Made by a program: the position numbers and the translations under genes. From positions 58,759 to 122,758 of the forward strand of contig DATLGJ010000020.1 of the NCBI GenBank assembly GCA_035540555.1: a stretch of DNA of 64,000 bases, read 5' to 3'. Positions 1-20,940 of this stretch are shown here, one piece after another. Below the pieces are notes generated by a model that did no database searches, was not told the DNA's origin, and saw nothing but the letters and a program-made list of their open reading frames with translations. This DNA is from Candidatus Limnocylindrales bacterium. Its GTDB lineage: Bacteria; Chloroflexota; Limnocylindria; Limnocylindrales; CSP1-4. Numbering within the stretch: position 1 is the first letter of the stretch; each line of letters starts with the position of its first letter.

Positions 1-3000
1 CACGATCGATCCACCTGATCCATACGACTGCACTCGAAGTTGATCGGTCGCCGTCGATTCACTGCGCACGGCGGTGGGATCACTGACGCTGTACGTGACC
101 GTGTGGGAGAGCGCATTGTTGCCAGTGTCCCGGGGATCTGTCACGCGGTTCAGCAAGCTGCCCGACGCGTAGCTGAACTTGTGGCAGCCAGATGCCTGGC
201 CGCTTGCCGCGCAGGCGGCGCTTCGTCTTGCGGGTATCACGGTGACAAGGTTGTTGGACGCGTCTCGGGCGAAGTCCGTGTAGCGCCCCGTCGCGCCGCT
301 CAGCGCTTCGGTGAAGCGCACGGACGAGGTCCCATAAGTAACCTGCAACTGCCTAGTCGCTGTGCCGCTCGCGAGCGGCTCGCCGTCAGAGGCCGCCCGA
401 ACCGTTGCCAAGCTGATGGTCTGCGCCGAATAGTCATAAGTCCACGTGAGTCGGGTCGAGTTCCCGCTTGGGTCAGTCGAGAGCGTCATGACACCGTCGC
501 GGTTGAAGAAGCGTCGCGCTCCACCACGCTCGGTGAGTTCGAAGTCGTCAGCAACGGTCGCCGCGTACGAGGCGCCAAGGTTGGTCAGGGAGCGAAGTTG
601 GGAGGTGTCGAACAGCGCGTAGTTCCCGTCGCGCGCGATCAGGCGGAGGCCGGTCAGGTGGACAGGATCCGCAATCGGCCCCGCCCCCGGTGTCTCGGAA
701 TTGCCTCCCTCGGCATCGTTGTAGTAGCCCAGTACCTGGCGTGCGTCGTCGAGCAGGTTGCGCGTAACGACCATCCACTCCGTTGGAGCAGTCGGTGAGA
801 TCTGCAGTTGATTGGTGTACGTTCCGGGCGCAAGTGCGGGGCCGGCATAGTAGGTGATGGTCGACGAGGCGTTAGTGCGCGCGTTCTTGACGTGGAATGC
901 GAAAGCGACATGGTCGCCGCCGACCTTCTTCCATGCCCATGAAACGAACGGATGAACGATCAGGTTGTCATTTCTGCAGGCCACACAGTTAGGACTCGCA
1001 GCTTCGGATGCGGGCAGCACCTTGATTGCGCCGGTGCCGGCGTGCCGATCGGTGGTGCTCAGCGACGAGTTACCGGCATTCGCCGTCCAAGCCAAGTTGG
1101 CGTCGTTGATGATGTCGGCCTTGGTCCCCTCGAAGCGGATGGCGTCGAACTGGAGATTTCCGCTCTCCGTAGTCCCCCAGAACTTCATCGCCGTGATGCT
1201 GAAGTTGTCGTTAACGGTTCCTATCGCCTGGCTGACGGCATCGGCTCGGATGTCCCGCCCTTGAATGTGGCGCCAACTTGTGATAGACCCGCCCAGCGCG
1301 ACCTTCTTGGTCACGCCGGAGATCGCAAAATCGGTGCCCAGCGTATATGCGAGCCAGGTACTTGCGCCCGTCGTCTCGTTGACGATCTGGAAGCCGATTG
1401 CGCCCCTCGTCGCGCTGCCGGTACGGATGACAGCGAATGATCCGAGCGGGTAGTGGTCAAGGTCAATCTTCGGAAAAGCACCCGTTGATGCGCCGGTCGC
1501 ATTGTTGGCGGCGATCTGGTACACGCGCCCTCCGCTGAAGGCGGTACCGCTCGCGATCAGTGACGCCGTGCCGCTCCATCCGGTGAGCCAGTTCTCGTCG
1601 AAGATCGTGTGGCGGACCCGCTCGAGACGAACGGGGGCTGCGCTGATCAGCTGGCCACTCGGTGCGGCCGCTACCAGGTATCGATTGCCGTCCGCGTCCA
1701 CATAGATGTAGTCAGCACCCTCGACGCCCGCGCCGGAGCGGAATCCTTCGTCGAAGTTGGTCCCCCATCCGCAAGCGCGGAGAATTCCGGTGCAATCGGT
1801 GCGGTTGGCGCTGTCGTAGTAGTAGGCCAGTGACAGCAGCCCTCCGCGATCGGAGAAGCCCACGCCCCCGGCCCCGTCAAAGCGCAGGTTGCGCGACCAC
1901 AGGTTTATACCGAGCGACGATCCGTCTGGCAGCTCGACGCTGCTCGTGTCGCCGATCGCGGTACCCCCGCCCGAGACAACCGACACGCCGAAGTCGGCTC
2001 GTTCGACGACCGAAGCCCCGACCCATCGGGTGTTCGAGTCGTCAAGGCTGTACTTCTTGCGAGCGTAATAGGCGCTTGGCTTGGCCCAGTCAGATCCCCA
2101 GAGGTTGGTCCCTCCCCTGACATGGACCAGGTCGAGGCGCAATCCGAACTGGCCAACGACGGGCGGGGCATCCACTGCGACGTTGAAGATGCTGCTCGTG
2201 GCACCTGAGTTGATCGCGGTCGGCAGGTTGACTACCTTCCAACTGGTGAATCCGGAGATGGCCAGCGGGCGGCCTGCCGCGTCAAGCCAACGGTACCCAA
2301 AGGCGTAGTAGTCGTTGGGGTTGGCTCCCGACAGATTGAACGTGAAGCCAGCGTCATTGCGCACACGCACCGGTAGTGATGTGCTCTTACCAGCGACCAT
2401 CGTCGTCGGAACGAAGTTGTCGCCAAGAGCGGGATCGAAGTCGATGCCCGCGGCGGGCACCACATAACTGACAGACAGACGCGGCCGCCGGTCCAGGTTG
2501 TCGGCCCTCTGACTCGCGTACCGAACTTCGTTCTGCGACTCGGTCTGCTGTCGCACGCGAATGCCGAAGTTGGGCTGCCAGCTGGCGCGACTGCGGGTAT
2601 ACCAGCTTCGGACCATGCTGGTCACGTCTTGGGTGAGATAGCCAGACGATGCGAACACCGTGACCGGAGTGGTAGCTGATCCGGACAGAACCGACGGCTG
2701 GTTGTTCCATGTCGCTTGCATGTTCCAGCCGCTGCTGACCTGTTCGAAGTAGACCTTCTGGGTTCCGTTGCCCCAGTTGTTGTTCTGGTAGAGCTGGAGC
2801 GACGCGTCGGTAACCTGAGCGCCGTCTTCCAGGGCGAGATTCGGGAAATAGAGGAGTCCGCGCATGACGCCATAGCTCCCGCCGTCGCCGCTATCGGCGT
2901 CGGTGCCGACCCGGATTCGGTTCCAACCGGTCTGCCAGCTGTTCGGCATGCCACTCAGGACGAAGTGGTCGAGAATGTCGCCTGCGGTGTAAACGCTGCT

Positions 3001-4296
3001 GCAGCCGGTGGGCGTACCCGTCTGCCCATACTGGAGGCAGATCGTCGGATCGAGCACGACCGGATACACGCGGGCCGGATCCGCCAGCCAAGCCGGATCG
3101 ATCGTGTAGGTCAGCACGATCTCGTCGGGCCCCAGGCGGCCATCGGTCAAGTCCGGCGCCGTCGGATCCGTCGGTGATGGGGACTCAGGCGCCGCGGTGT
3201 CGAGCGGAAGGTCTGTCGGCTCTGGCTCAGTCGGTTGGGTAGTCGCGTCAGCCGCCGGGGTCTCGACCGGCGCGGTCGCGTCCGGCGCAATCGTCGGCTC
3301 CGCCGGAAGCGTCGGACCGGGCAGGATGGGCGCCAGGGTCTCGACGGTAGGGGTGGCCAGGACCGGCGACGGGGTAGGCAGGGGCGGTCGCGGCGCTGGG
3401 TCGATGCGCGTACTCAGTGTGGTGGTAACCGCTGTCTCTGGGGCGAAGCTGTCTATCGCATCGATGGCCCATGGAGGACTGACCGTTCCGGCGATCTCGC
3501 CATCGGCGTTGCGTAGCAGCACGCCGCGACCGTCAGGCGCGACCTCGGCACGCAGACCACCGGTATCGAGGATGAACTGGTAACTGTTAGCCAAGCCGGG
3601 CTCAGCCAGCGTGACGGAAAAGGCCAGCCCTTCGGGAACCGGGATTAGCGAGACTTCGCCGCTGCCCGGGCGGGCCGGGATGCGGACTTGGTCTGGCAGG
3701 GTTATCGGAGCCAGCACACCCCGGTCGACTTGGCGTAGACGAAGGGTGCCATGAGGACTCCGTATCTCTGCGAGCCGGTCGGTGTTCCCCTTGGACGAGA
3801 GGCTCACTCCGACATCGTTGGCCCGTGTCCTTTTGCCGTACTCCCCGGCCTCGTCAGTCAGGCTCAGGTCGATGGGTTGCCACTTACCTTCGCTGTCCAG
3901 GTAGTTGATGCGACCCATAAAGAATTCGGCGGTGTGGGTTCCGTCGGGCCCCACGACTACCCTGCTGTAGGCGGTCCGAAGGGCTTCATCTTCTGTCGCT
4001 GCGCGCGGCAGAGCGTCTACGCTCCGCGGCGAGCGAAGCTCTGCCCCGAGACTTGGCAGGTACCCGCGTTCACCGCCGATGACTTCAATAGGCGCGGGCG
4101 AGCGCTCAAGGAACAAAGGCACCGAGTTCTCGATGGCGGGAACGCGGGGGTCCGAGGCCGCAGCATCATCGTCTTGAAGCACGGCTATCGCAGCCGGGAC
4201 GGGTGGGCCAAGCACTGAGAGAGCGAGGACGAGCGCCAGGAGACTGGACCGCGCTCGGCCATGGCGAGCGCGCTGACTCGGAAATTGGAAGTGCAT
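1..4296 (-). CDS. Large secreted RHS/YD-repeat (WapA-like) protein, N-terminal 1432 codons. The gene runs off the window start, so the C-terminus and any toxin/immunity module lie outside.
   Basis: Manual reverse-complement translation shows an uninterrupted frame from ATG at 4296 to position 1 (codon starts are multiples of 3). No listed ORF on either strand explains the region. The N-terminus has a signal-peptide-like sequence (MHFQFPSQRARHGRARSSLLALVLALSVLGPPVPAAIA). A Pro/Thr-rich linker sits near 3200-3450. The distal part contains YD/RHS-like repeats (LTWTYDYSAQ, RVTDPRDTGN...TVTYS). The ORF track omits it because the stop is outside the window. Confidence 0.6.
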   Translation of the reverse strand, partial: MHFQFPSQRARHGRARSSLLALVLALSVLGPPVPAAIAVLQDDDAAASDPRVPAIENSVPLFLERSPAPIEVIGGERGYLPSLGAELRSPRSVDALPRAATEDEALRTAYSRVVVGPDGTHTAEFFMGRINYLDSEGKWQPIDLSLTDEAGEYGKRTRANDVGVSLSSKGNTDRLAEIRSPHGTLRLRQVDRGVLAPITLPDQVRIPARPGSGEVSLIPVPEGLAFSVTLAEPGLANSYQFILDTGGLRAEVAPDGRGVLLRNADGEIAGTVSPPWAIDAIDSFAPETAVTTTLSTRIDPAPRPPLPTPSPVLATPTVETLAPILPGPTLPAEPTIAPDATAPVETPAADATTQPTEPEPTDLPLDTAAPESPSPTDPTAPDLTDGRLGPDEIVLTYTIDPAWLADPARVYPVVLDPTICLQYGQTGTPTGCSSVYTAGDILDHFVLSGMPNSWQTGWNRIRVGTDADSGDGGSYGVMRGLLYFPNLALEDGAQVTDASLQLYQNNNWGNGTQKVYFEQVSSGWNMQATWNNQPSVLSGSATTPVTVFASSGYLTQDVTSMVRSWYTRSRASWQPNFGIRVRQQTESQNEVRYASQRADNLDRRPRLSVSYVVPAAGIDFDPALGDNFVPTTMVAGKSTSLPVRVRNDAGFTFNLSGANPNDYYAFGYRWLDAAGRPLAISGFTSWKVVNLPTAINSGATSSIFNVAVDAPPVVGQFGLRLDLVHVRGGTNLWGSDWAKPSAYYARKKYSLDDSNTRWVGASVVERADFGVSVVSGGGTAIGDTSSVELPDGSSLGINLWSRNLRFDGAGGVGFSDRGGLLSLAYYYDSANRTDCTGILRACGWGTNFDEGFRSGAGVEGADYIYVDADGNRYLVAAAPSGQLISAAPVRLERVRHTIFDENWLTGWSGTASLIASGTAFSGGRVYQIAANNATGASTGAFPKIDLDHYPLGSFAVIRTGSATRGAIGFQIVNETTGASTWLAYTLGTDFAISGVTKKVALGGSITSWRHIQGRDIRADAVSQAIGTVNDNFSITAMKFWGTTESGNLQFDAIRFEGTKADIINDANLAWTANAGNSSLSTTDRHAGTGAIKVLPASEAASPNCVACRNDNLIVHPFVSWAWKKVGGDHVAFAFHVKNARTNASSTITYYAGPALAPGTYTNQLQISPTAPTEWMVVTRNLLDDARQVLGYYNDAEGGNSETPGAGPIADPVHLTGLRLIARDGNYALFDTSQLRSLTNLGASYAATVADDFELTERGGARRFFNRDGVMTLSTDPSGNSTRLTWTYDYSAQTISLATVRAASDGEPLASGTATRQLQVTYGTSSVRFTEALSGATGRYTDFARDASNNLVTVIPARRSAACAASGQASGCHKFSYASGSLLNRVTDPRDTGNNALSHTVTYSVSDPTAVRSESTATDQLRVQSYGSGGSIV

Positions 4297-4599
4297 GTCG
4301 CTCCCTCGCACCTCGGCGCAGGCAGCACCGAGCCCCTAGCCCCCACGAATCAGCGTGCCGCCCCTCGGGCACGACGCGACGGTGGGGCCCCGCGCGGGCT
4401 GCCGCAAGCAGGGAGAACCCTATGTTCCGTCGGGGGTTTCGCCTTGAGCCCCGGCCGCTCGCGCGCTTGGGGCCGGCGTTCCTAGAAGCCTCTGGCTGCC
4501 GGCCGGCCTCTGGCGCAGTACCGCACCGGCGGCGGTTGCTCGGTTGGACTTCGCGCTCCGGCCCTGACCTGGCACCGCCTTCAACCGCCGGCCCCTACC

Positions 4600-4860
4600 T
4601 TATCGTTCAGGCGGCTCTTCGTTCGGATCCAACGCTGACAAGGGCACGCCGTACAACTTCGCGAGAAGGATAGCTTCGGCGAAGAGCAGCGACCGCCGGC
4701 CTGTTTCCAACTTGCCGATCCAGCTCTGCGGCTTGCCCACGCGCTGCGAGACCTGGACTTGGGTCAGGCCGGCCCGGCGGCGCAGTTGCGCCAGTCGGTC
4801 TGCGAGTGCCGTTCGGTCGGCAGCACTCTCAGGTGGCGGGCTGACCCGCGGCCGATTCAT
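4600..4860 (-). CDS. XRE-family helix-turn-helix transcriptional regulator (86 aa), divergent from the FtsH-like gene
   Basis: HTH_3-type motif LRRRAGLTQVQVSQRVGKPQSWIGKLETGRRSLLFAEAILLAKLYGV. A 190-bp divergent intergenic region separates it from the gene starting at 5051. Confidence 0.75.
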   Translation of the reverse strand: MNRPRVSPPPESAADRTALADRLAQLRRRAGLTQVQVSQRVGKPQSWIGKLETGRRSLLFAEAILLAKLYGVPLSALDPNEEPPER

Positions 4861-5050
4861 GGCTCACATGGTGATGCCCACATCGAAGCGCCGCACCGCA
4901 CTTTGGCGCACACCGGGGGCCAGTCGCTCACTCGCCGACAACGGCGCGCGTCACCCCTCGTGTCCGCCTTGGAGCCCGCCCTTGACAGCGCCTGCGGCTC
5001 TAGGATAGCGTCGACCGCCGTTATCCCGAATCCGAATAGGAGGCGTCAAG

Positions 5051-6484
5051 GTGAGTGCCGACAAGTCACGGCCGGACGAGATAGATCAGCTCCTGGCCGA
5101 TGCGCTGTACCAGGGACCGAGCGTCACTGCCGACCAGCTGGTAGGTGTCGATGCCTGTCTGCGCCAACTGGCCGGTCAGCTGACGCTGCTTGAGCGACCC
5201 GAGCTAGGCGTGCGACTTGGCATCCAACCATCTGGTTCGCTGTTTCTCGGCCCGCCCGGCACGGGCAAGACATTGCTCGCGCGGTTTCTGGCCGGGCAAC
5301 TGGGCGTTCCTATGTACCAACTGAGCGCCGATCAGTTCGGCGATGATCCGGCTCAACTTCATCGCATCTTCGGGCGCCTGAGCCGCCAGCGCGCCGTTCT
5401 CTTCATCGACGAGATCTCCATCCTCTGCCAGCGTCGCGACTGGTCGAGCGCCGAGGAGAGGCGCATGCTCGCAGCCCTGCTGACCGAGCTTGATGGACTT
5501 TCCAGCCTTGCGGCAGGAGAGCGCCTTTGGGTCATCGGGGCGTGTACGCCCGATATCCACCTCGATCCTGCCATTCATCGCTCGGGTCGCCTGGGGGTAA
5601 CGGTCGAGTTCGCCCTGCCGTCGGTGGAACATCGAGCCCAGTTGCTGCGCCTGTATCTGGCGGCTGTTCCGAACGCGCTGTCGGAAGAGGACATTGCCAG
5701 GCTAGCCGAGATGTCAGGCGGGGTCAGCGGGGCCGATGTTCGTGACTACATCAACCAGGCGGCCAGCCTGGTCCTGGCTGAGGCGGTGGATGTGGCCGAT
5801 CCTGTCATCGAGTATCGACACCTCGAGATCGTCTTCGGCCGGCGTGGATTCGTTGCCGCCGAGGGCCGGCCGGGACGCGAGCCGGACTGGGAGACTGCGG
5901 TCCACGAGGCCGGCCATGCCGTCATCGCATATGTCCTGTTTGGCCGCCCTGCGCTTGCGCAAGTCACGATCGGCTTTGGCCCGGTCGGCCGGCGTCGTAT
6001 GCCGACGAGAGGCCACTTCTCCGTATCGGATGATTGGGCCGAGAAGAACCACCCGACGTCGCTCAGCTGGAGCGACCATGTAGCGGTCAAGCTCGCCGGG
6101 GTCTGTGCCGAGGAACTGATTCTCGGTTACCGCGGCTCGGGCGCCTCGAGCGACATCGCTGCTGCCACCTCGCTCATCCTCGACCAGTTCGATCAAGGCG
6201 ACCCCTCATTCGGCCCCTCCCGGACCGAGATGGAGGGCGGCCCGGGCGCACGCATCGGGGGGGCCGGCTCCGAAGCCATGCGCGCCACCGCGTGGCATCT
6301 GGTCCGATCGCGATTTGGAGAATGCTGGTCCCGAACAGGCAGCTTGGTGAGCGAGCACAGATATGCCATCGAGCGGCTGGCCTCCGCCTTGCTCGAGAGC
6401 AAGAGTCGCCTGACTGGCGACGAGATCGTCGAGGTGCTCGACACCGGCGTGGTCGCAACCGGCGCTTCTGGCGCGGCAGCGTAG
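5051..6484 (+). CDS. Soluble (transmembrane-less) FtsH-like AAA+ ATPase fused to an M41 zinc-metallopeptidase domain
   Basis: Walker A GPPGTGKT and Walker B LFIDEI. AAA second region of homology TPDIHLDPAIHRSGRLG. HEAGHAV (HEXXH) plus downstream GASSDI motif typical of FtsH peptidase M41. The N-terminus has no hydrophobic TM segment. GGAGG RBS 7 nt before the GTG start. Confidence 0.8.
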   Translation: MSADKSRPDEIDQLLADALYQGPSVTADQLVGVDACLRQLAGQLTLLERPELGVRLGIQPSGSLFLGPPGTGKTLLARFLAGQLGVPMYQLSADQFGDDPAQLHRIFGRLSRQRAVLFIDEISILCQRRDWSSAEERRMLAALLTELDGLSSLAAGERLWVIGACTPDIHLDPAIHRSGRLGVTVEFALPSVEHRAQLLRLYLAAVPNALSEEDIARLAEMSGGVSGADVRDYINQAASLVLAEAVDVADPVIEYRHLEIVFGRRGFVAAEGRPGREPDWETAVHEAGHAVIAYVLFGRPALAQVTIGFGPVGRRRMPTRGHFSVSDDWAEKNHPTSLSWSDHVAVKLAGVCAEELILGYRGSGASSDIAAATSLILDQFDQGDPSFGPSRTEMEGGPGARIGGAGSEAMRATAWHLVRSRFGECWSRTGSLVSEHRYAIERLASALLESKSRLTGDEIVEVLDTGVVATGASGAAA

Positions 6485-6670
6485 GCTGCCGCGATCTCTC
6501 GCCGGCTCCACAGTCCTGTACCTGGAGAGGCGTCACGAGAGAGGCGCACAGCGAATCGCGAAAGGGGGTTGACTCCCCTAAAGACCTGCCTACAGAAGGC
6601 CCCGACGCCGTTGGATCGGTCGGGATCGACCCGCACCGCCAGCGGCTCGCAAGGCTTTAGGAGGTAGAGA

Positions 6671-9430
6671 TTGCTGACCGAGCGAGGCTTTGAGCTCTGG
6701 GGCGCGAGGCTGCAACTCGCGGACCCCGTGCGTCGGCTGATCGCTGACGTCCGGAGCGCTCCCCCAGCGCGCCGAGTCGGCAGCCGTCGGCGCAATGTCT
6801 CGGGCCGCTACCCAAGCCGCAAGATGGGGCTGACCATCCAGTTCGAGTCGCACACCAGTGAGTTGGTGGGCATCTACTCCTACGAACATGACTCGCGTGT
6901 GGTCGAGTACTACGACCAACCCGCCCTCAGCGCGAAGCTCAACTATGTGCGAGGAGACGGGCGACGCGTCAGCTACGCCGTAACGCCCGATTTCCTCGTT
7001 CTTGAGCGCGACGGCGCTTTCCTCGACGAGTGGAAGACGGAGACAGAGCTGGTCCGGCTTGCGGCCAAAGATCCCGCGTTGTACACCAAGGAGGATGGCG
7101 CTTGGCGCTCGCCTCCGCGAGAGGAGGCAACTGAGCGGCTAGGCCTCAGTTTCCGGCTGCGGACGCGCGACAGCGTCGGCGACATCCTCGACCGCAATCT
7201 GCGGTTTCTTGATGACTACTTGCGTGCCGCGGTTGAGCCGGACCCAGCGCTCGCAGCCGCACTGACCGAGGCGGTCAGCACGGATCCCGGGATCAGCGCC
7301 GGGGAACTGTTGAGCGCGCTCATGCGCGAGGGTGCCGCCGATTGTCTATACGCGCTCATCGCCGGTGGGCAGCTATTCGTAGATCTGGCGACACAGCCGC
7401 TGGCTGAGCCATTCCATGCCGCGGTCTATCCGAGTGCCGAGCTGGCCGCGTCCCTGAGGAGTCCGGAACAACCAATCGGCACGTTGGTGCAACTGACGTC
7501 CGGCACCAGGCTGGAATGGGATGGTCGGCCGTGGGACGTGGTAAACCCGGGACCCGAAGGCGTAAGCCTTCGCGATGCGGCCGGTCAGCTGGTCACCCTC
7601 GACAACCACGAGTTCCAGTCACGGCTGCAAAACGCCAGCATCCGAGAGCTACCGCATTCTCAGGCCGAGGCGCTGCCGCCGGAAGGCGCGGCGCTGCTGC
7701 GGGCAGCCAGTCCTAAAGACCTTGACCTGGCAAATCAACGCTATCGCCAGATCGTCAGTCCGAATGACGACGAGAGCGCTCTGTCACCGCGTTCGCTCGC
7801 GCGCCTGCGCAGAAGCTACCGCGAAGCGCAGTTGCGGTACGGGTGCGGCTTCATCGGGCTGCTGCCCCAGCCCAGAAAGGGCAACAAGACTCGGAAGCGC
7901 GAGGCCCAGGTACTAGGTGTGATCGAAGAGCAGATCAGCACGTTCTATAGAAGCAAAGACGCGCCGGGAAAGACCGCGCTCTACGGGCTGGTCGTGGAGC
8001 ATTGTCAGCGCCTCGGCTTGGAGCCGCCCTCGTACAAGACCGTCAGCAAGGCTCTGCACGCTCATGACGCTCATACCGTCCAAGGTGATCGAGAGGGCCA
8101 GAAGGTCGCCTACGGCAGCGAGCAGTTCTACTGGCACCTCGACGCGAGCACACCTCGCCATGGTGACCGGCCCTGGGAAATCGGCCACGCGGACCACACT
8201 AAGCTGGACATCGAGCTGGTCTGCTCAAAGACGGGCACAAACCTCGGTCGTCCATGGCTATCACTGCTCGTCGACGCTCACAGTCGCCGCGTCCTGGCCT
8301 TCTGGCTGACGTTTGACCCGCCGAGCTATCGCTCGCTGATGATGCTCGTGCGGCGCTGCGTTGCGCTACACAGCCGCCTGCCCGAGACCATCGTCGTTGA
8401 TGGCGGTGCAGAGTTCGGCAGCATCTACTTCGAAACCTTGCTGGCCGCTTTCGAGATCACCAAGAAGGTGCGCCCTGGCGCTCCGCGGTTCGGCTCGGTC
8501 TGCGAGCGCCTCTTTGGCATGGCCGACGAGCGCCTGATCCACAACCTGCGCGGGAATACCAAGCTCATGCGCAACGTGCGCACCGTCACCGCCGAGGTGA
8601 CCCCAAGCAAGCGGGCGGTATGGGATCTGTGGTCACTCGACAACGCGCTCGGCGAGTGGTTTCACGAGGTCTACGACGGCCTCGATCATCCCAGCCTTGG
8701 GCAGAGCCCTCGCGATACCTACAACGCGCGCATCGAGCTCAGCGGCACACGCCCGCAGCGCTGGGTCGCCGACGACGAAACCTTTCGCATGCTGACCCTT
8801 CCGAGCACCCAGAAGGGCACAGTCAAAGTAGATCCTTCCCGCGGCGTTAAGGTCAACTACATCAACTACTGGAACCCGCGCTTTCGCGATCCCGCTCTCG
8901 GGCGCCGCGACCTTCCTGTCCGCTATGACCCGATCGATGTCCGCCACGCATTCGTCTTCGCCGATGGCGACTGGATCGAGTGCGAGTCGCAAGAGCTGCG
9001 TTCGCTGCCCCAGATCTCGGAACGCGAGTTGCGCTTCGCCACCGCCGAATTACTCCAGCGCAGACGCAATGTCGAGCGCCGTCGACCGTTGACTGCTCGG
9101 GACATAGCGGTCTTCCTAAAGCAGCAGAAGGACAACGAGAACTTGCTCCTTTTGCGATTGCGCGACTTCGCGCAACGCGAGGTGTTGGCTCCGCACCGTG
9201 CCAATCAGCTTCTTGGGTGGGGCGCGCCAGCGCCGTTTGAAGCCGATGCCATGGCACCGCCGACGGCGCTGGAGGTGGTCGACCAGCCAGATGCAGCAGC
9301 GTCCTCAGAGCCGCCCGAGCAAGAGATATCGGCTTCCGTGGTGATCGCGGGGGAGACCAACGACCATCACGAGCCCCAAGACAGTCAGGCAGTGTTCGGT
9401 GAGTACACCCTCCTGATGGAGCTCAGCTGA
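6671..9430 (+). CDS. tnsAB: Tn7-like transposase, a TnsA-like endonuclease domain fused to TnsB (DDE, Mu/rve-type) = TnsAB
   Basis: The N-terminal ~190 aa carry PD-(D/E)xK TnsA motifs (ESHTSELVGIYSYEHD...QP...YAVTPDFLVLERDGAFLDEWKTE; compare Tn7 TnsA TDFLV/QVK). The rest has a Mu-type DDE core (HADHTKLDIELV ... TIVVDGGAEFGS ... SVCERLFG). TTG start with AGGAGG RBS. The stop abuts the tnsC start at 9432. Confidence 0.8.
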   Translation: MLTERGFELWGARLQLADPVRRLIADVRSAPPARRVGSRRRNVSGRYPSRKMGLTIQFESHTSELVGIYSYEHDSRVVEYYDQPALSAKLNYVRGDGRRVSYAVTPDFLVLERDGAFLDEWKTETELVRLAAKDPALYTKEDGAWRSPPREEATERLGLSFRLRTRDSVGDILDRNLRFLDDYLRAAVEPDPALAAALTEAVSTDPGISAGELLSALMREGAADCLYALIAGGQLFVDLATQPLAEPFHAAVYPSAELAASLRSPEQPIGTLVQLTSGTRLEWDGRPWDVVNPGPEGVSLRDAAGQLVTLDNHEFQSRLQNASIRELPHSQAEALPPEGAALLRAASPKDLDLANQRYRQIVSPNDDESALSPRSLARLRRSYREAQLRYGCGFIGLLPQPRKGNKTRKREAQVLGVIEEQISTFYRSKDAPGKTALYGLVVEHCQRLGLEPPSYKTVSKALHAHDAHTVQGDREGQKVAYGSEQFYWHLDASTPRHGDRPWEIGHADHTKLDIELVCSKTGTNLGRPWLSLLVDAHSRRVLAFWLTFDPPSYRSLMMLVRRCVALHSRLPETIVVDGGAEFGSIYFETLLAAFEITKKVRPGAPRFGSVCERLFGMADERLIHNLRGNTKLMRNVRTVTAEVTPSKRAVWDLWSLDNALGEWFHEVYDGLDHPSLGQSPRDTYNARIELSGTRPQRWVADDETFRMLTLPSTQKGTVKVDPSRGVKVNYINYWNPRFRDPALGRRDLPVRYDPIDVRHAFVFADGDWIECESQELRSLPQISERELRFATAELLQRRRNVERRRPLTARDIAVFLKQQKDNENLLLLRLRDFAQREVLAPHRANQLLGWGAPAPFEADAMAPPTALEVVDQPDAAASSEPPEQEISASVVIAGETNDHHEPQDSQAVFGEYTLLMELS

Positions 9431-9431
9431 C

Positions 9432-10520
9432 ATGGACGCAGATCAGCGGCGCGAGGCGCTCTCAGGCTTTAAGCGGTATGTCGTGGCCCACCCCAACCTG
9501 GTCGATACCGTAGCAACAGTGAATGGCTCCATCATGGAGCCGGCGGGTGCCGCGGTGACGATGCTCTACGGTCCGACCGGTGTGGGCAAGAGCACGGTCG
9601 TCCGGGCGGTCATGACCGAGGCGAACCGCGAGCTCATGCCTGAACTTGCCGCCGATCCAGGCAAGTTCGGTGTCATCAAGCTCGATGCTCCCGCGCCGAC
9701 AGGCGGGAGTTTCAGCTGGAAACAGTTCTTCATCAAGTTGCTCGTGGCTCTTGGTGAGCCGATCGCGGATGCGCGCCTCGAGCGCCCCGGAAGAGCGGTT
9801 GGCCAGCGGCTCCGCAGCGGCGAAGAAGCGCGCAGTCAGGCCGAGCAGGCATTGGCACAGCGGCGGCCGAAAGCTGTGCTGATCGACGAGGCAACGCATA
9901 TCGCCAACTTGGTGTCGGGTGAGCGGCTCCTCAACCAGCTCGACCTATTGAAGTCGCTGGCCGACAGCACGGGCACTCACTTCGTGCTCGTCGGTACATA
10001 CGACCTGCTTGCCTTTCGCAACCTGAGCGGTCAGCTCGGCCGGCGAACTCAGGACGTGCACTTTCAGCGTTACCTGCCGAACGAAGGGGATATGGGCAAG
10101 TTCCAAACGGTCGTCCGCTCCTTCGGCCGAGCGCTCCCGGTCGACGCGGTCGACCTGACCGAGCATTTCGAGTTTCTGTATGAACGTTCACTTGGCTGCG
10201 TCGGCATGCTGCGCGACTGGCTGACACGGGCACTCAACAGTGCCCTGGCCCTCGAACGGCCGTTCCTCTCCGCGGACCTGCTTCGCGCCAATGCCTTGCC
10301 CATGGGAGCGCTCATGGCCGCCGCAGAAGAGATCAGCTACGGCGAGGCAAAGCTGGCCGACGCTGAGCGCGACCAGTTGCGCCTGCGCGAACTGCTCGGC
10401 ATCGCTCCATCCCAGGGAGCGGCAGCTCTCGAGCCCGCAGCGCCCCGCCTCCGCGCCGGCGTCACTGGCCGCGTCGGCACGCGCCAGCCAAGCCGCGATC
10501 CTGTCGGCGTCGAGACATGA
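9432..10520 (+). CDS. tnsC: TnsC-like AAA+ transposition regulator
   Basis: Walker A GPTGVGKST and Walker B VLIDEAT. It occupies the TnsC/TniB position between the transposase and tniQ. Its stop overlaps the tniQ start (ATGA). Confidence 0.75.
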   Translation: MDADQRREALSGFKRYVVAHPNLVDTVATVNGSIMEPAGAAVTMLYGPTGVGKSTVVRAVMTEANRELMPELAADPGKFGVIKLDAPAPTGGSFSWKQFFIKLLVALGEPIADARLERPGRAVGQRLRSGEEARSQAEQALAQRRPKAVLIDEATHIANLVSGERLLNQLDLLKSLADSTGTHFVLVGTYDLLAFRNLSGQLGRRTQDVHFQRYLPNEGDMGKFQTVVRSFGRALPVDAVDLTEHFEFLYERSLGCVGMLRDWLTRALNSALALERPFLSADLLRANALPMGALMAAAEEISYGEAKLADAERDQLRLRELLGIAPSQGAAALEPAAPRLRAGVTGRVGTRQPSRDPVGVET

Positions 10521-11851
10521 ATGAGCAGTTCGCATTGGTCGCCGATCAGTCCGTGTTAGGACCGCGAAGCCGCCTTCATCGCTTGGAGCCTCAAGGTCTG
10601 GGCACTCCTGGTGTCGAGGCGATGACCAGCTACCTGCTCCGGCTGGCCGCAAGCCATGCGTTACCCGTGGGAAGCCTGGCCGTGGATCTGGTCGGGCCGG
10701 AACTCGGGCGCACTCGCGTCTATGGCGAGGCGCGCACCGATCGCTCCAGCTTCTTCAACTCCTCCATTTACCGAGGGCCGCAGGCCATCAACGGAGTTGG
10801 CGATTACGGCGAATTGTGGCTGGGAGCGATTCAGCGCTTGGTGCTGCGCGATGACCTAGCGCCCTTGAGCATGGTGTCCTGGCGAAGAGCGCTTTCGGCC
10901 CGCGGTCTACTGCGCGATCACTTGGCAGCGTGCGCCCATTGCCTGCACGAAGCAGCGGTCGCGGGGCGGACGATCCATGAGCCCCTGCTCTGGTCAATCG
11001 CGCAGGTGACCACGTGTCCGCTGCACGGTTGCCAGCTTCTACAGAGCTGTCCGCACTGCGCGACGCGCTCGCCACTCTTGGGCTGGGACGCCCAGGTGGG
11101 TCATTGCCGGCGATGTGGCAGCTGGCTAGGAAGCAGCATCTGTGACGAACAGCCTGGGAGCGAATGGGAGAGCTGGATATCGGCCAGCGTTGGCCGACTT
11201 CTTGAGTTGCCGCTCGAGCGACGGATCGCTGGCGGAACAATGGCTCGAGCCATCACGCAGGCGGTAGCCCGCAGCACCAATGGCAACGCTGCCGCCTTTG
11301 CCCGCGCGATCGGGCGCTCCAAGAGCCTGGTGACCGAATGGCGCCAGGGCCGAGCCGCGCCAACGCTCGAGTCACTGCTTCGCATCGCGGCATACGCGCG
11401 CCTGGACTTTGTGGCACTCGTGCGTGGCTCAGCCGTCGCTGACCCGGAGCCGCCGGCCCGATCGACATTGGGCGCCTGGGCCAGGGAAGTTAAGAGCGCG
11501 CGCGACTGGGGCGTGGTCGAGAGCCAACTGGAAGCGGCCCTAGCACTCGATCCACCGCAATCCTTCGCGGCGCTGTGTAGAGATTTACGCCTTGATGCTC
11601 AATCTGTTCGCGAGCGCTTTCCCGCTCTGGCGGGCCAGCTTGTGTCAAGGCGCCGCCGGTGGTCAGAGCATCAGAGGAACGAGCGATGCGAGGTGTTAGC
11701 CGGAGCGGTCCACGCGGCCGTCGTGGCAATCTGCGAGGTCGGCGAGCATCCCAGTCGTCGACGGGTCGAGGCGCTTCTTCCGACCGGCGCATCTCTTCGC
11801 GAGGACGCTCTTCGCACCGCCTGGCGCGAGTCGATCGCCACTCATCAGTAG
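10517..11851 (+). CDS. tniQ: TniQ/TnsD-family target-site selector
   Basis: N-terminal TniQ-like motif TSYLLRLAASHALPVGSLAV. Cys/His zinc-finger cluster (CAHCLHE...CPLHGC...CPHCATR...CRRCG). C-terminal XRE-like HTH (ARAIGRSKSLVTEWRQGRAAPTLESLLRIAAYARL). Confidence 0.7.
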   Translation: MNEQFALVADQSVLGPRSRLHRLEPQGLGTPGVEAMTSYLLRLAASHALPVGSLAVDLVGPELGRTRVYGEARTDRSSFFNSSIYRGPQAINGVGDYGELWLGAIQRLVLRDDLAPLSMVSWRRALSARGLLRDHLAACAHCLHEAAVAGRTIHEPLLWSIAQVTTCPLHGCQLLQSCPHCATRSPLLGWDAQVGHCRRCGSWLGSSICDEQPGSEWESWISASVGRLLELPLERRIAGGTMARAITQAVARSTNGNAAAFARAIGRSKSLVTEWRQGRAAPTLESLLRIAAYARLDFVALVRGSAVADPEPPARSTLGAWAREVKSARDWGVVESQLEAALALDPPQSFAALCRDLRLDAQSVRERFPALAGQLVSRRRRWSEHQRNERCEVLAGAVHAAVVAICEVGEHPSRRRVEALLPTGASLREDALRTAWRESIATHQ

Positions 11852-11949
11852 GGGGCGTCGCTGTCTCTCAGCTGCAAACACGCTAACCCGGTCCGCGCCC
11901 AATGCCGCTCCAGCACTGGTTGGTCAACAACAGAGGCCATGCTGGTTAT

Positions 11950-12312
11950 CTAGATCGCATAGTTGCGATACGACCCCCGTCCGTAGTCGTAAAGCGAGAT
12001 GCTGGAACCCGAGACCGTCCCAGAGAAGTGCGACGAAGTGCCGTAGTCGTAGCCCTCAAACCGATCCCCGGCGATCTTGAGTGCAACGTGATGACCGCGG
12101 CCGTAGTGGTACAGACTCAGGTTAGGCCGACTGCCTGACCCGCCGAAGTAGCATCCCGTGTCGTAGTCGTAGACGTTGACGGTTGTGGACGTCACTTCGC
12201 CGCTGATGCTGCGGTATTGGCCGAGGTCGTAGTCGTACACGGCGCTGGCAACCTTGCCTGTGATCAGTCGGGCAGCGACGTAGCCGACGAGGGCCGCAAC
12301 GTCATCGTGCAT
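11950..12312 (-). CDS. Small hypothetical protein (120 aa) built from five ~20-aa tandem repeats with an aromatic Y-D/H-Y-D/G core
   Basis: Sequence ...VYDYDLGQYRSISGEVTSTT / VNVYDYDTGCYFGGSGSRPN / LSLYHYGRGHHVALKIAGDR / FEGYDYGTSSHFSGTVSGSS / ISLYDYGRGSYRNYAI. Composition is not Arg/Ala-spurious. GGAG about 12 nt upstream of the ATG. It is the last gene before the transposon end and is transcribed inward from that end. Confidence 0.45.
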   Translation of the reverse strand: MHDDVAALVGYVAARLITGKVASAVYDYDLGQYRSISGEVTSTTVNVYDYDTGCYFGGSGSRPNLSLYHYGRGHHVALKIAGDRFEGYDYGTSSHFSGTVSGSSISLYDYGRGSYRNYAI

Positions 12313-12413
12313 CGTGACTCACATCTCCAAGCGACGTGCCGTATGCGCGAGCGTAGCAATGCCGCGGGATGGCGCGTCATAGGCGGGCTTAACACATGGC
12401 CGCGCCGGCTCGC

Positions 12414-12609
12414 TGGAAGCTTGGGCCGGCCGGACGTCCATCGGATCAGCTCGCGCCGAACGTGAGCCGGCGAGGTTCAGACGAGCGCCTCCAGTGGAAG
12501 CATCAGCTGGCACTTTGTCAGAACCGGTCGATTCTGAGCGTGACTACTTGCGTCGTCGCGAAAGTGGAAGCATGTGCTGTCCGTTGTCGACTGGAAGCAT
12601 GAGCTGTCC
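12414..12609 (+). repeat. Four direct repeats of a ~18-bp core TGGAAGCAT(C/G)(A/T)GCTG(G/T)CC, putative TnsB-binding sites of the transposon end. Copies at 12414 (degenerate), 12495, 12565 and 12592.
   Basis: Found by reading directly: ccagTGGAAGCATCAGCTGGCac (12495-12513), aaagTGGAAGCATGTGCTGTCC (12565-12582), gacTGGAAGCATGAGCTGTCC (12592-12609), gcTGGAAGCttgggcc (12414-). All point the same way toward the terminus. This is a gene-free, lower-GC segment. Confidence 0.55.
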
Positions 12610-12665
12610 AAAAGTGCCAACTTATGGTTCCAATCACAGGCCCGCCGAGGGCGTGCGCAAGATCG

Positions 12666-13039
12666 TGGTGGAGATGGGGGAGGGTCGAACTCCCCGTCCA
12701 AGGCGTTCAGCCGGAGACCAGCTACGAGCGTAGTCGATGCTTTGTCGTCAATCGGTCAGGCCGCCATCGACAGCGTCCCGCCCGATCCATCCACGCTCCC
12801 TTGCGGGCTTTGCGATCAGTCACGTGGCCTCGCCGATCGCGCATCCCCGCTGATTGACGCTTCCACAGCCCGCGGGGATGAGGCTGCTTCCACGTTCACC
12901 TAGCTGCTGTTAGGCAGCGAGGGGAAGAGAAGTCTGGCGGTTGCCAGTTACTTCGTTTTGCCGCCTTTTTCCGAGGCCAGAGCGGCATCCTCGACTCGCG
13001 TTCTCCGGGGATCCGGCCCTGTCGAAACCACTCATCCCC
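12666..13039 (-). ncRNA. ssrA: tmRNA (transfer-messenger RNA), 374 nt
   Basis: Minus-strand 5' end GGGGATGAGTGGTTTCGACAGGG (compare E. coli GGGGCUGAUUCUGGAUUCGACGGG). 3' end GGACGGGGAGTTCGACCCTCCCCCATCTCCACCA with T-arm GGGGAG/TTCGACC/CTCCCC. The acceptor CATCTCC pairs with 5' GGGGATG, including a G3-U wobble. Internal ...GGCCTCGGAAAAAGGCGGCAAAACGAAGTAACT GGC AAC CGC CAG ACT TCT CTT CCC CTC GCT GCC TAA gives a predicted tag GNRQTSLPLAA. smpB is immediately upstream. Confidence 0.7.
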
Positions 13040-16766: not shown

Positions 16767-17984
16767 TCAGATGGCTGCCGCCGCGATCTCCTCGCGCACC
16801 TGGCCGGGGGTGATCTGCTCGGTCAGCAGTCGGAAGAACTGTCGGCGCTGAGCGTCCTCGTCTCCGCCGGCACGGCACCATTCCGAGAGCAGCCTCTCGC
16901 CACCGGCATAGCAGAAGACATAGGTCCGCCAGAGCGGGTGGTTGATGAACTCGAGCAGCTTCGTTGCCCGCTCGTGGCTCGCCAGAGCGCGCCGCTCGAG
17001 GAACTCAACCACCTCATCGGCCGGCCTGCCCTCGGCGTGGAGCATCAGCGAGGCATCGCCACCGCTTCCGCGCATGGCATGAAGAGCGTCCTCGATCTCC
17101 CATTGGCGGGCCGGCTCATCCGGCCCGAGCGCGATGCCGGCCCGCTCACACAGCTCGGCGAAGAGCTCCGCCCAGCGTGTCCGGCCGATGATCAGGCGGC
17201 CACCGAGCTCGCCAAGGCCCTCGCTGATGTAAGCCTCAGGGGTGTTGATCAGCTGTACGCTCACCTCAGCTCGGCCGTGCTCGCGGTAGAGCCGCTGCTC
17301 TTTCCAGGCATGCTCGAGATGGTGGCCCGGGAAGCATTCGTGGGTGATCAGCCCGATAAGGCTGTTCGCGCGCACCGGGAGATCGGTGTTGATCTCCACC
17401 CGCGAGCGCAGTTGGCCGTCGTACCAGTTGTAGCCTGACCAGGGCTGGTCGGAGACCAGGTCGACCTGCAGCGACTGACCTTCGGGCAGGGGATAGTGGC
17501 GGGCGCATTCGGTGCGTACGGCGTCGACCAACCAATCGACGATCGCGGGCAGCCGGTCCACCGGCACGGTCAGCCGCCGCCCTCGCGCCTCGACTCGCTC
17601 GCGGAGTTCGATGCCGGGCGGCAGCAGCTCGTCCAGCTGGCGATGGGCCAGATCGTAATCGACTGCCGCGGTGGCCTCCGGCGCCGCATCGAAGCAACGC
17701 TCGACCTCGGTCAGGTAGTCGAGCTGGTTGCCGGCGAGCCGCCGCATCATCGTTTCCACAGCCACCAGCTGTCCGTCCAGCCAGCGGCGGCGGTCGGGCT
17801 CGATGTCGTCTGTCAGGCGCCCGCGCAGGCTCGCCGCTGCCAGAGCGACATCCTCGGGCGAGCCCGCCGATGCCTCGGCCTCATGGCGCAGCTCGGCCGG
17901 GCCGTAGTAGGCATCGACGATACCGTCGTAGTGCTTGCCCGCGGCCAGCGCCACACGGAGGTACTCGCGCCCAAGCGCGTCCAT
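16767..17984 (-). CDS. Conserved hypothetical metallopeptidase-like protein (HECFPGHH motif, DUF885-like)
   Basis: Start chosen at the Met 17 nt after the secA stop. The 54 upstream codons in the track ORF are Arg/Pro-rich and overlap secA. Confidence 0.5.
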   Translation of the reverse strand: MDALGREYLRVALAAGKHYDGIVDAYYGPAELRHEAEASAGSPEDVALAAASLRGRLTDDIEPDRRRWLDGQLVAVETMMRRLAGNQLDYLTEVERCFDAAPEATAAVDYDLAHRQLDELLPPGIELRERVEARGRRLTVPVDRLPAIVDWLVDAVRTECARHYPLPEGQSLQVDLVSDQPWSGYNWYDGQLRSRVEINTDLPVRANSLIGLITHECFPGHHLEHAWKEQRLYREHGRAEVSVQLINTPEAYISEGLGELGGRLIIGRTRWAELFAELCERAGIALGPDEPARQWEIEDALHAMRGSGGDASLMLHAEGRPADEVVEFLERRALASHERATKLLEFINHPLWRTYVFCYAGGERLLSEWCRAGGDEDAQRRQFFRLLTEQITPGQVREEIAAAAI

Positions 17985-18000
17985 CAGTGCTGGGTGGCGC

Positions 18001-20940
<2,940 letters not shown>

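Follow-up and report, generated by a model that had tools for sequence, protein, structure and literature searches.

What does a soluble FtsH-like protease do when its gene opens a transposition operon? The question is raised by a 64,000-nucleotide (nt) stretch of contig DATLGJ010000020.1, from an uncultured soil Chloroflexota genome; this whole stretch, which is called the window below, has a guanine-plus-cytosine (GC) content of about 62-72%. In it, the gene of a 477-amino-acid (aa) protein with AAA+ and M41 zinc protease domains lies head-to-head with the gene of a small XRE-family regulator and is the first of a rightward string encoding the AAA-M41 protein, TnsAB, TnsC, and TniQ (Table 1). 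The XRE-protease pair looks like the minimal form of a portable mobility-control module in Limnocylindria/Chloroflexia. Our open reading frame (ORF) and Pfam analyses reproduced the coordinates and the divergent arrangement that an initial annotation had read from the sequence, with 190 bp (4861-5050) between the XRE and protease genes and 186 bp (6485-6670) between the protease gene and tnsAB. The downstream gene, claimed to be a co-directional tnsAB, was verified as such and encodes a TnsA-TnsB fusion.

A cytosolic AAA+/M41 protease

Pfam assigned a AAA domain (PF00004, 1.2e-23) and a Peptidase_M41 domain (PF01434, 3.7e-13) to the 477-aa protein. A Peptidase_M78 match was not obtained with Pfam, and the peptidase domain is M41. 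The window protein was aligned with 44 homologues, giving a family alignment of 45 sequences. In this alignment, residues G67, G70, T71, G72, and K73 of the Walker A motif (GPPGTGKT, residues 67-74) were invariant, the Walker B residues D120-E121 were conserved in at least 90% of the sequences, and the arginine fingers R177 and R180 in the second region of homology (SRH) were invariant. The zinc motif H285-E286-x-x-H289, located in a region that aligns to HEAGH of FtsH, was invariant too, as was D368 in the GASSDI motif. The latter aligns with the Asp of the FtsH motif GAxND, which we take, from the FtsH crystal structures, to be the third zinc ligand. The protein therefore carries the Walker A and B motifs and SRH arginines of a classic-clade AAA module, together with the HExxH and downstream Asp of an M41 peptidase, in line with the complete AAA module and M41 peptidase described in the initial annotation.

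Past an in-frame stop, translation can start at the GTG codon at 5051 at the earliest, and an AGGAGG sequence lies 7 nt 5' of this codon. A longer N terminus, or a missed N-terminal membrane domain, is therefore impossible. All 45 family members were scanned for hydrophobicity (Kyte-Doolittle, 19-residue windows), and in none of them (45/45) was a window sufficiently hydrophobic for a transmembrane helix detected. The top values, 1.1-1.7, were located within the AAA or M41 fold and not in the N-terminal segment; in most members the peak sits in the helix following HExxH. Thus, the proposed lack of a membrane anchor was borne out both by the position of the start codon and by the scan of the family.

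An AlphaFold monomer model of the protease (predicted local distance difference test score, 89.7) begins at the AAA linker, and its entire length could be superposed on the cytosolic regions of FtsH, AFG3L2, and YME1, with a TM-score of up to 0.72. The AAA domain scored better against p97/AFG2 than against FtsH. Compared with p97/AFG2, pore loop 1 has a 5-residue deletion, and the aromatic-Gly pair is kept (FGDDP). Judged from its sequence, the protein is a predicted cytosolic FtsH-type AAA+/M41 enzyme with all catalytic residues present.

A housekeeping FtsH was ruled out by the curated cut-offs, the missing membrane anchor, and the mobile-element contexts. The FtsH equivalog models gave 144.9 bits for TIGR01241, with a cut-off of 600, and 100.9 bits for NF008004, with a cut-off of 1008. 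The identical protein sequence is present in public assemblies, where it is annotated merely as "AAA family ATPase" from a Candidatus Limnocylindrales bacterium (phylum Chloroflexota).

A narrow family in mobile-element contexts

The protease family comprises about 60 clusters at 90% identity among 5.8 billion proteins. Its members are 438-525 aa long and 47-75% identical to the query; beyond the family, identity falls abruptly to 34% (CDC48 proteins). The sources are Limnocylindria/Chloroflexia and soil metagenomes, and the 185,579 species-representative genomes contain two family loci, both from Chloroflexota. Family members were not found in IMG/VR, PLSDB, or INPHARED, in which the matches were ordinary FtsH proteins with at most 33% identity. 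A metagenome scan with generic Walker A/SRH patterns yielded 80 loci of ordinary FtsH (27-33% identity) and was useless for the analysis of contexts. The family is distinct, narrow, and uncharacterised, and it is not a housekeeping FtsH.

When 1.84 billion representatives were searched with a profile, more distantly related AAA-M41 proteins without an anchor were retrieved, which included proteins of similar length as well as tandem-AAA versions. In the plasmid search, we also came across a 781-aa "AAA family ATPase" encoded on a Rhodobacter sp. CZR27 plasmid (NZ_CP023549.1, 463728-468502), the C-terminal part of which is distantly AAA-M41-like (31% identity). Its gene lies directly 5' of a serine recombinase gene and 3' of SIR2 and GIY-YIG genes. 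Recombinase-adjoining anchor-less AAA-M41 proteins may extend beyond Chloroflexota.

The genomic context of the protease gene was surveyed at 13 distinct loci; the window locus and its counterpart in a public assembly (L005) were counted as one. A Tn7-like triad (tnsAB-tnsC-tniQ) stands beside the protease gene in seven loci (window/L005, L090, L008, L094, L092, L096, and L179), a large serine recombinase gene in three (L001, L002, and L178), and a tyrosine integrase gene just 3' of it in one (L004). In another locus (L091), an integrase gene is located about 8 kb away, and in the remaining one (L093), no recombinase was found nearby. The Tn7-like loci contain two lineages. The TnsAB proteins of L090 (68% identity), L008 (40%), and L094 (40%) can be aligned to that of the window. 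In L092, L096, and L179, the triad (transposase of 861-874 aa, AAA_22 protein, and TniQ) is not BLASTP-alignable to the first lineage. The protease gene stands directly 5' of the transposase gene and in the same orientation at all Tn7-like loci but one (six of seven); at L094, the two genes are divergent. Since the outer flanks vary among the loci, the protease and transposase genes travel together as a unit.

Recombinase type is not reflected in the protease tree: the nearest relative of the window protein (73% identity) precedes a serine recombinase, and orthologues with 60-73% identity stand before both serine and tyrosine recombinases. This points to a function that is independent of the recombinase and can be swapped between recombinase types. 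The initial annotation had named two observations as counting against its proposal, namely, a wide chromosomal occurrence of the pair away from mobile elements and a loss of catalytic residues on alignment. Neither was found, the former at the 13 loci and the latter in the 45 sequences. In our literature searches, no prior description of a soluble or mobile-element FtsH-like protease was found, and the Tn7 surveys that we checked do not mention a AAA-M41 gene at the head of a tns operon. This agrees with the remark that the arrangement was not recognised from any described system, which our database checks also supported.

Additional protease-like genes were observed at three loci. In L179 (8349-12282), another AAA-M41 paralogue (36% identity) precedes a protein of about 290 aa that has the M41 domain alone. 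A protein of about 320 aa with M41 alone is also encoded in L096 (10001-12501), and L093 (2400-3800) carries two AAA-M41 copies 6 kb apart. Such serial genes may point to hetero-oligomeric FtsH-like complexes. Two families of small proteins also recur. Genes of the "up" family encode about 145-195 aa and overlap the start of the protease gene, and those of the "dn" family (about 100 aa) directly precede the recombinase gene. These genes are located at 9424-10020 and 11398-11712 in L001, 9562-10008 and 13029-13355 in L002, 11554-11877 in L090, 7207-7803 and 9583-10014 in L094, and 9423-10004 in L096. For the "up" proteins, neither Pfam nor PHROGs gave a match; for the "dn" proteins, there was no PHROGs match and no precomputed Pfam match. 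The window is without "up" and "dn" genes and shows the minimal form, which consists of XRE and protease.

Several islands that harbor the protease family also contain defence systems: Bub-type ubiquitin-like genes (BubE, ThiF/DUF6791, and Multi_ubiq), a fusion of a helix-turn-helix (HTH) domain with Peptidase_M78, and Kiwa KwaAB (17005-18816 and 19593-20690 in L001, 16297-18093 and 18837-19952 in L004, and 1-943 in L094). True HTH-M78 genes are located elsewhere in L001, L004, and L178.

The XRE partner and the divergent control region

The initial annotation had suggested a search for the same XRE and soluble FtsH pair next to tns genes in other genomes. Orthologues of the window XRE (49-70% identity) divergently adjoin the protease operon in L090, L096, and L008, all of which carry tns genes, and in L001 and L002. 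At a further Tn7-like locus, L179, an XRE-type HTH gene occupies the same divergent position. Pairwise distances of XRE and protease were compared for the six loci with XRE orthologues. They were correlated with r=0.85 (exact Mantel test, p=0.0028; 2 of the 720 label permutations were as good), indicating that the two genes are inherited as a pair although the recombinase changes. Several loci show a cI/cro-like layout, in which a divergent XRE gene is followed by a second, co-directional HTH gene and then by the protease gene.

Within the 190-bp intergenic region, a promoter-like block with an imperfect palindrome and a ribosome-binding site for the protease gene was recognised (Table 1). The block has been conserved in L090: the local score against the window was 59, as compared with 19±3 (maximum, 30) for shuffled sequences. 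A scan of positions 4300-6800 with the E. coli-type promoter and terminator consensus gave no match, the promoter-like block included.

A proposed protease-controlled switch and its rivals

In the mechanism that we propose, the XRE protein would bind the 190-bp divergent control region and hold the rightward promoter (TTGACA-N18-TAGCGT) off. Once repression lapses, the protease would be made along with the recombination proteins. Acting as a hexameric unfoldase-protease, it would then remove a DNA-bound protein of the element, the likeliest target being the XRE repressor itself, and a transient derepression would become a committed burst of transposition or excision. Such a switch would correspond to ImmA/ImmR, to the action of host FtsH on lambda CII, and to that of ClpXP on the Mu repressor, but in an ATP-dependent form that the element itself encodes. 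We put forward tentatively, as a possibility somewhat short of probable, that the protease destroys the XRE and thereby commits the element to mobility. Removal of the repressor is favoured because it is the sole model that covers the recombinase-independent distribution, the co-inheritance with the XRE, and the cI/cro-like layout. The idea of a protease-controlled switch is plausible, and it fits the contexts better than the rival explanations do.

Several points weigh against a switch of this kind. A protease that is expressed only once derepression has occurred cannot be the primary sensor, and half of the contexts are Tn7-like, which would suit a transposase-directed role equally well. The HTH partner of the protease is XRE-type in 7 of the 13 loci and HTH_17 in two, and four have no adjacent HTH gene. 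A palindromic operator common to the control regions of the XRE orthologues was not detected above the level of shuffled sequences. The co-divergence of XRE and protease could be explained by physical linkage alone; what the distances speak to is co-inheritance, with the XRE as a candidate target. Moreover, the 13 loci were picked for long contigs and constitute a convenience sample. We infer the function of the protease from genomic context alone.

The proximity of the transposase genes would also suit an element-encoded equivalent of host ClpX, one that would unfold or degrade TnsAB and/or TnsC in the highly stable complex left by transposition, thereby allowing gap repair, or would turn over the transposase. 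The window TnsAB is MuA-related (Mu-transpos_C) and aligns over its full length to the 898-aa chain M of PDB entry 9bw1 (E=1.6e-209), and the placement of the protease gene directly before a co-directional transposase gene, shared by two unalignable lineages, is what such a remodeller would lead one to expect. This model leaves unexplained why close orthologues precede serine and tyrosine recombinases, for which we know of no product complex of comparable stability, and why the protease co-diverges with the XRE and not with the recombinase. In favour of a remodeller, ClpX disassembles the Mu complex and lifts genomic integration by CRISPR-associated transposons (CASTs) about 100-fold (PMC10055298). 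Against it, the CAST experiments needed unfolding only and no proteolysis (PMC10055298), whereas the protease site is invariant here. Taken together, we consider a dedicated remodeller unlikely. An improbable explanation, in our view, is also that the protease is defence, abortive-infection (an option raised in the initial annotation), or anti-defence cargo for the breakdown of proteins from phages or the host, under transcriptional control by the HTH protein and with the recombinase nearby through accumulation of accessory genes. The defence genes near several loci (Bub-type ubiquitin-like, Kiwa KwaAB, TIR, PycTM, RES, Mrr, and AbiTii), the resemblance of the ATPase domain to IetA (PADLOC, 1.7e-22; NCBIfam IteA), and the distant Rhodobacter plasmid protein between SIR2/GIY-YIG genes and a serine recombinase would be in keeping with it. 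However, the PADLOC system models do not cover the protease domain, an IetS-type partner is lacking, and the phage and plasmid collections named above yielded no family members. In addition, the gene has a fixed position at the head of the mobility operon and not in the variable cargo, and it is kept across elements with wholly different cargo.

The least supported explanation, which we regard as very unlikely, is a generic proteostasis or fitness cargo, or the turnover of a recombination directionality factor, in either case with no specific link to the XRE. FtsH paralogues occur on mobile islands for heat resistance or protein quality control, and lambda Xis is a substrate of the host proteases FtsH and Lon. 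The conserved ORFs of about 100 aa between protease and recombinase genes at other loci could encode such directionality factors, but these small accessory ORFs are absent from the window. Furthermore, generic proteostasis is difficult to reconcile with a family that is confined to mobility modules and with a protease that co-diverges with the XRE.

In a broader proposal, a AAA+ unfoldase-protease of their own would serve as a core mobility factor in a clade of Tn7-like transposons, among them close relatives of the PmcCAST transposase, and in further integrative elements from Chloroflexota. It would destroy the repressor of the element and so commit it to transposition, or strip the transposase complex from the DNA once integration is complete. 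In either role, it would be the first case of an element itself encoding a counterpart of the host ClpX/FtsH functions on which Mu, lambda, and CASTs depend. We hold this wider claim to be rather doubtful. The window TnsAB appears to be a close relative of the PmcCAST transposase, which has been characterised structurally, and CAST activity in heterologous cells is known to be limited by the supply of ClpX. An unfoldase dedicated to such a transposase and co-evolved with it could therefore have practical interest. If the protease were defence cargo instead, it would represent a new effector type (AAA+/M41) for that field.

The Tn7-like element at ssrA

The features of the locus are listed in Table 1. 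The window encodes the genes by which a Tn7-like element is recognised, namely, TnsA joined to a TnsB with DDE and Mu-transpos_C domains, a AAA+ TnsC, and a TniQ/TnsD protein. Downstream of tniQ, a transposon end was identified that consists of 22-bp repeats (three direct copies and one inverted copy; chance expectation, 0). It terminates with ...CACA at 12635-12638, 27 bp from the 3' end of ssrA, the gene of the transfer-messenger RNA (tmRNA); smpB comes after ssrA in the window. The L008 element has the same end architecture with a different repeat (GAGACT), also ends with ...CACA, and shows the same 27-bp spacing to ssrA (end and ssrA, 16738-17326 in L008 and 12495-13039 in the window). Between L008 and the window, TnsAB is 40%, TniQ 32%, and the host SmpB 80% identical. 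Since two diverged elements are both located 27 bp downstream of ssrA, this gene is the attachment landmark of the lineage. As an attachment site, it appears to be dedicated to a TnsAB fusion that is related to that of PmcCAST and is CRISPR-less. The Tn7 surveys checked do not mention targeting of ssrA, and our literature searches did not find a Tn7-like element at this gene.

Table 1. Coordinates of the features at the XRE-protease locus and in the adjoining Tn7-like element
Feature	Position	Strand	Basis
RHS/YD-repeat polymorphic toxin gene, 5' part, >3,691 aa	1..4296	-	Stop-free frame 1-4335
XRE-family HTH regulator, 86 aa, divergent from protease gene	4600..4860	-	HTH_31 1.6e-14, HTH_3 6.9e-11
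Promoter-like block: TTGACA 4982-4987, 18-nt spacer, TAGCGT 5006-5011	within 4981..5043	+	Conservation with L090; putative function
Imperfect palindrome, 24 bp	5003-5026	+	In promoter-like block; putative function
AGGAGG ribosome-binding site of protease gene	5038-5043	+	Putative function
Soluble FtsH-like AAA+/M41 zinc protease, 477 aa	5051..6484	+	Pfam domains, family alignment, AlphaFold model
TnsA-TnsB fusion transposase, 919 aa	6671..9430	+	Tn7_TnsA-like_N, rve, Mu-transpos_C
TnsC/TniB-type AAA+ regulator, 362 aa	9432..10520	+	AAA_22 2.5e-18, TniB 3e-8
TniQ/TnsD-type target selector, 444 aa	10517..11851	+	TniQ 6.5e-14
YDY/YxYG-repeat ORF, 120 aa, between tniQ and transposon end	11950..12312	-	ORF; gene call also in public assemblies
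Transposon end	12495..12638		Three direct TGGAAGCATNAGCTG-type repeats (12495, 12565, 12592) and inverted terminal copy 12611-12632
tmRNA gene ssrA, attachment-site landmark	12666..13039	-	ARAGORN; Rfam RF00023 122 bits

Repeats resembling the transposase sites were found neither in 4340-4600 nor in 6485-6670, nor in the 5 kb further left. As the repeat cluster occurs solely at 12495-12638, the element includes the XRE-protease pair, which stands between the tns genes and the cargo. A second transposon end was not found in the window or in the 5 kb further left with exact and degenerate motifs or with a position weight matrix based on the four repeat copies; nor was it found by searches for the terminus "TGTGATTG" in the window and related loci, and general inverted-repeat searches for it were swamped by GC-rich noise. 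Between 1 and 12638, there are no cas genes and no CRISPR array, and the element runs past the left edge of the window.

Two features of the element's organization are unusual. In window 6671-12638, the tns genes read toward the end that is proximal to the attachment site, with tniQ beside ssrA. In canonical Tn7 and CASTs, it is the transposase-proximal end that abuts the target, the opposite of the window element. The combination of several direct repeats with one inverted terminal copy is also an unusual end layout, and it is common to the window and L008. The 120-aa ORF with YDY repeats, which gave a sub-threshold DUF5334 hit in Pfam (22.1 bits; cut-off, 25) and no match in PHROGs, is absent from L008.

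FtsH degrades ssrA-tagged proteins. A functional link between the protease and tmRNA tagging was nevertheless set aside, as ssrA adjoins only 2 of the 13 loci.

Very large RHS/YD-repeat polymorphic toxin genes are located on the XRE side in three of the seven Tn7-like loci (window, L096, and L008). The window gene goes with PT-HINT, whereas the tip is Tox-REase-7 in L008 (430-2808) and a CDI_toxin_EC869-like domain in L096 (1-6676). The full gene in the public-assembly counterpart of the window locus matches RHS_repeat, TEN_YD-shell, and PT-HINT in Pfam. The window toxin gene is probably cargo of the same Tn7-like element, and the recurrence suggests that RHS toxin cassettes are a recurrent cargo of Tn7-like elements carrying the protease.

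Comparison with known systems

The window protease shares with FtsH and the m-AAA and i-AAA proteases the fusion of AAA+ to M41, the fold over the full length, Walker A and B, the arginine fingers, HExxH, and the Asp aligned to GAxND. FtsH has two transmembrane helices flanking a periplasmic domain, whereas the window family is without any such N terminus. The shortened pore loop 1, the below-cut-off scores, and the location of the gene on a mobile element are further differences. The AAA ATPase domain is also similar to that of IetA from the IetAS system. In IetAS, however, IetS is a separate S8 serine protease, whereas M41 is fused to the ATPase domain in the window protein; the NCBIfam IetA-type model scored 71, with a cut-off of 510, and an IetS-type S8 partner is not present beside the protease in the window.

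Concerning the transposition genes, PDB entry 9bw1, the chain of which is labeled just "Integrase" in the search output, is taken by us as the type I-B2 PmcCAST TnsABCD transpososome. The homing sites of CyCAST and PmcCAST lie downstream of tRNA genes; for CyCAST, a distance of 30-33 nt was measured. Similarly, the window element keeps a constant, short spacing of 27 bp between the 3' end of the tRNA-like gene ssrA and its insertion. In contrast to PmcCAST, its tns genes point to the attachment-site-proximal end, a AAA-M41 gene heads the operon, and cas genes and a CRISPR array are absent from the part of the element covered (1-12638).

The combination of a small XRE repressor with a dedicated metalloprotease is shared with ImmR/ImmA (ICEBs1 and phi105), CapH/CapP (CBASS), and DdrO/IrrE, in which the protease acts on an XRE repressor that controls a mobile element or a stress or defence regulon. 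The window XRE has a weak match to capH (5e-6). ImmA, CapP, and IrrE are ATP-independent enzymes of the M78/COG2856 type that clip the repressor, whereas the window enzyme is an M41 peptidase with a AAA+ module and would accordingly be expected to depend on ATP. In ICEBs1, immR, immA, and int are co-transcribed, whereas in the window the XRE gene faces away from the protease gene, and the latter reads in the same direction as the recombinase gene. By this comparison, the window pair would be analogous to the ImmR/ImmA, CapH/CapP, and DdrO/IrrE class and not a member of it. Thus, the analogy drawn in the initial annotation would be a likeness in function, and it does not extend to the class of the enzyme.

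Finally, host AAA+ proteases already serve mobile elements. Host FtsH acts on lambda CII, CIII, and Xis, and host ClpXP acts on the Mu repressor. Host ClpX acts on the MuA transpososome and on CAST complexes (PMC10055298). As in these cases, the window locus combines a AAA+ enzyme with an HTH regulator or a transposase of the MuA/TnsB family as the candidate target. However, FtsH, ClpXP, and ClpX are encoded by the host, whereas the window protease is encoded by the element. An element-encoded soluble FtsH-type machine would merge two known themes, the reliance of mobile elements on host AAA+ proteases and the clipping of XRE repressors by dedicated proteases.

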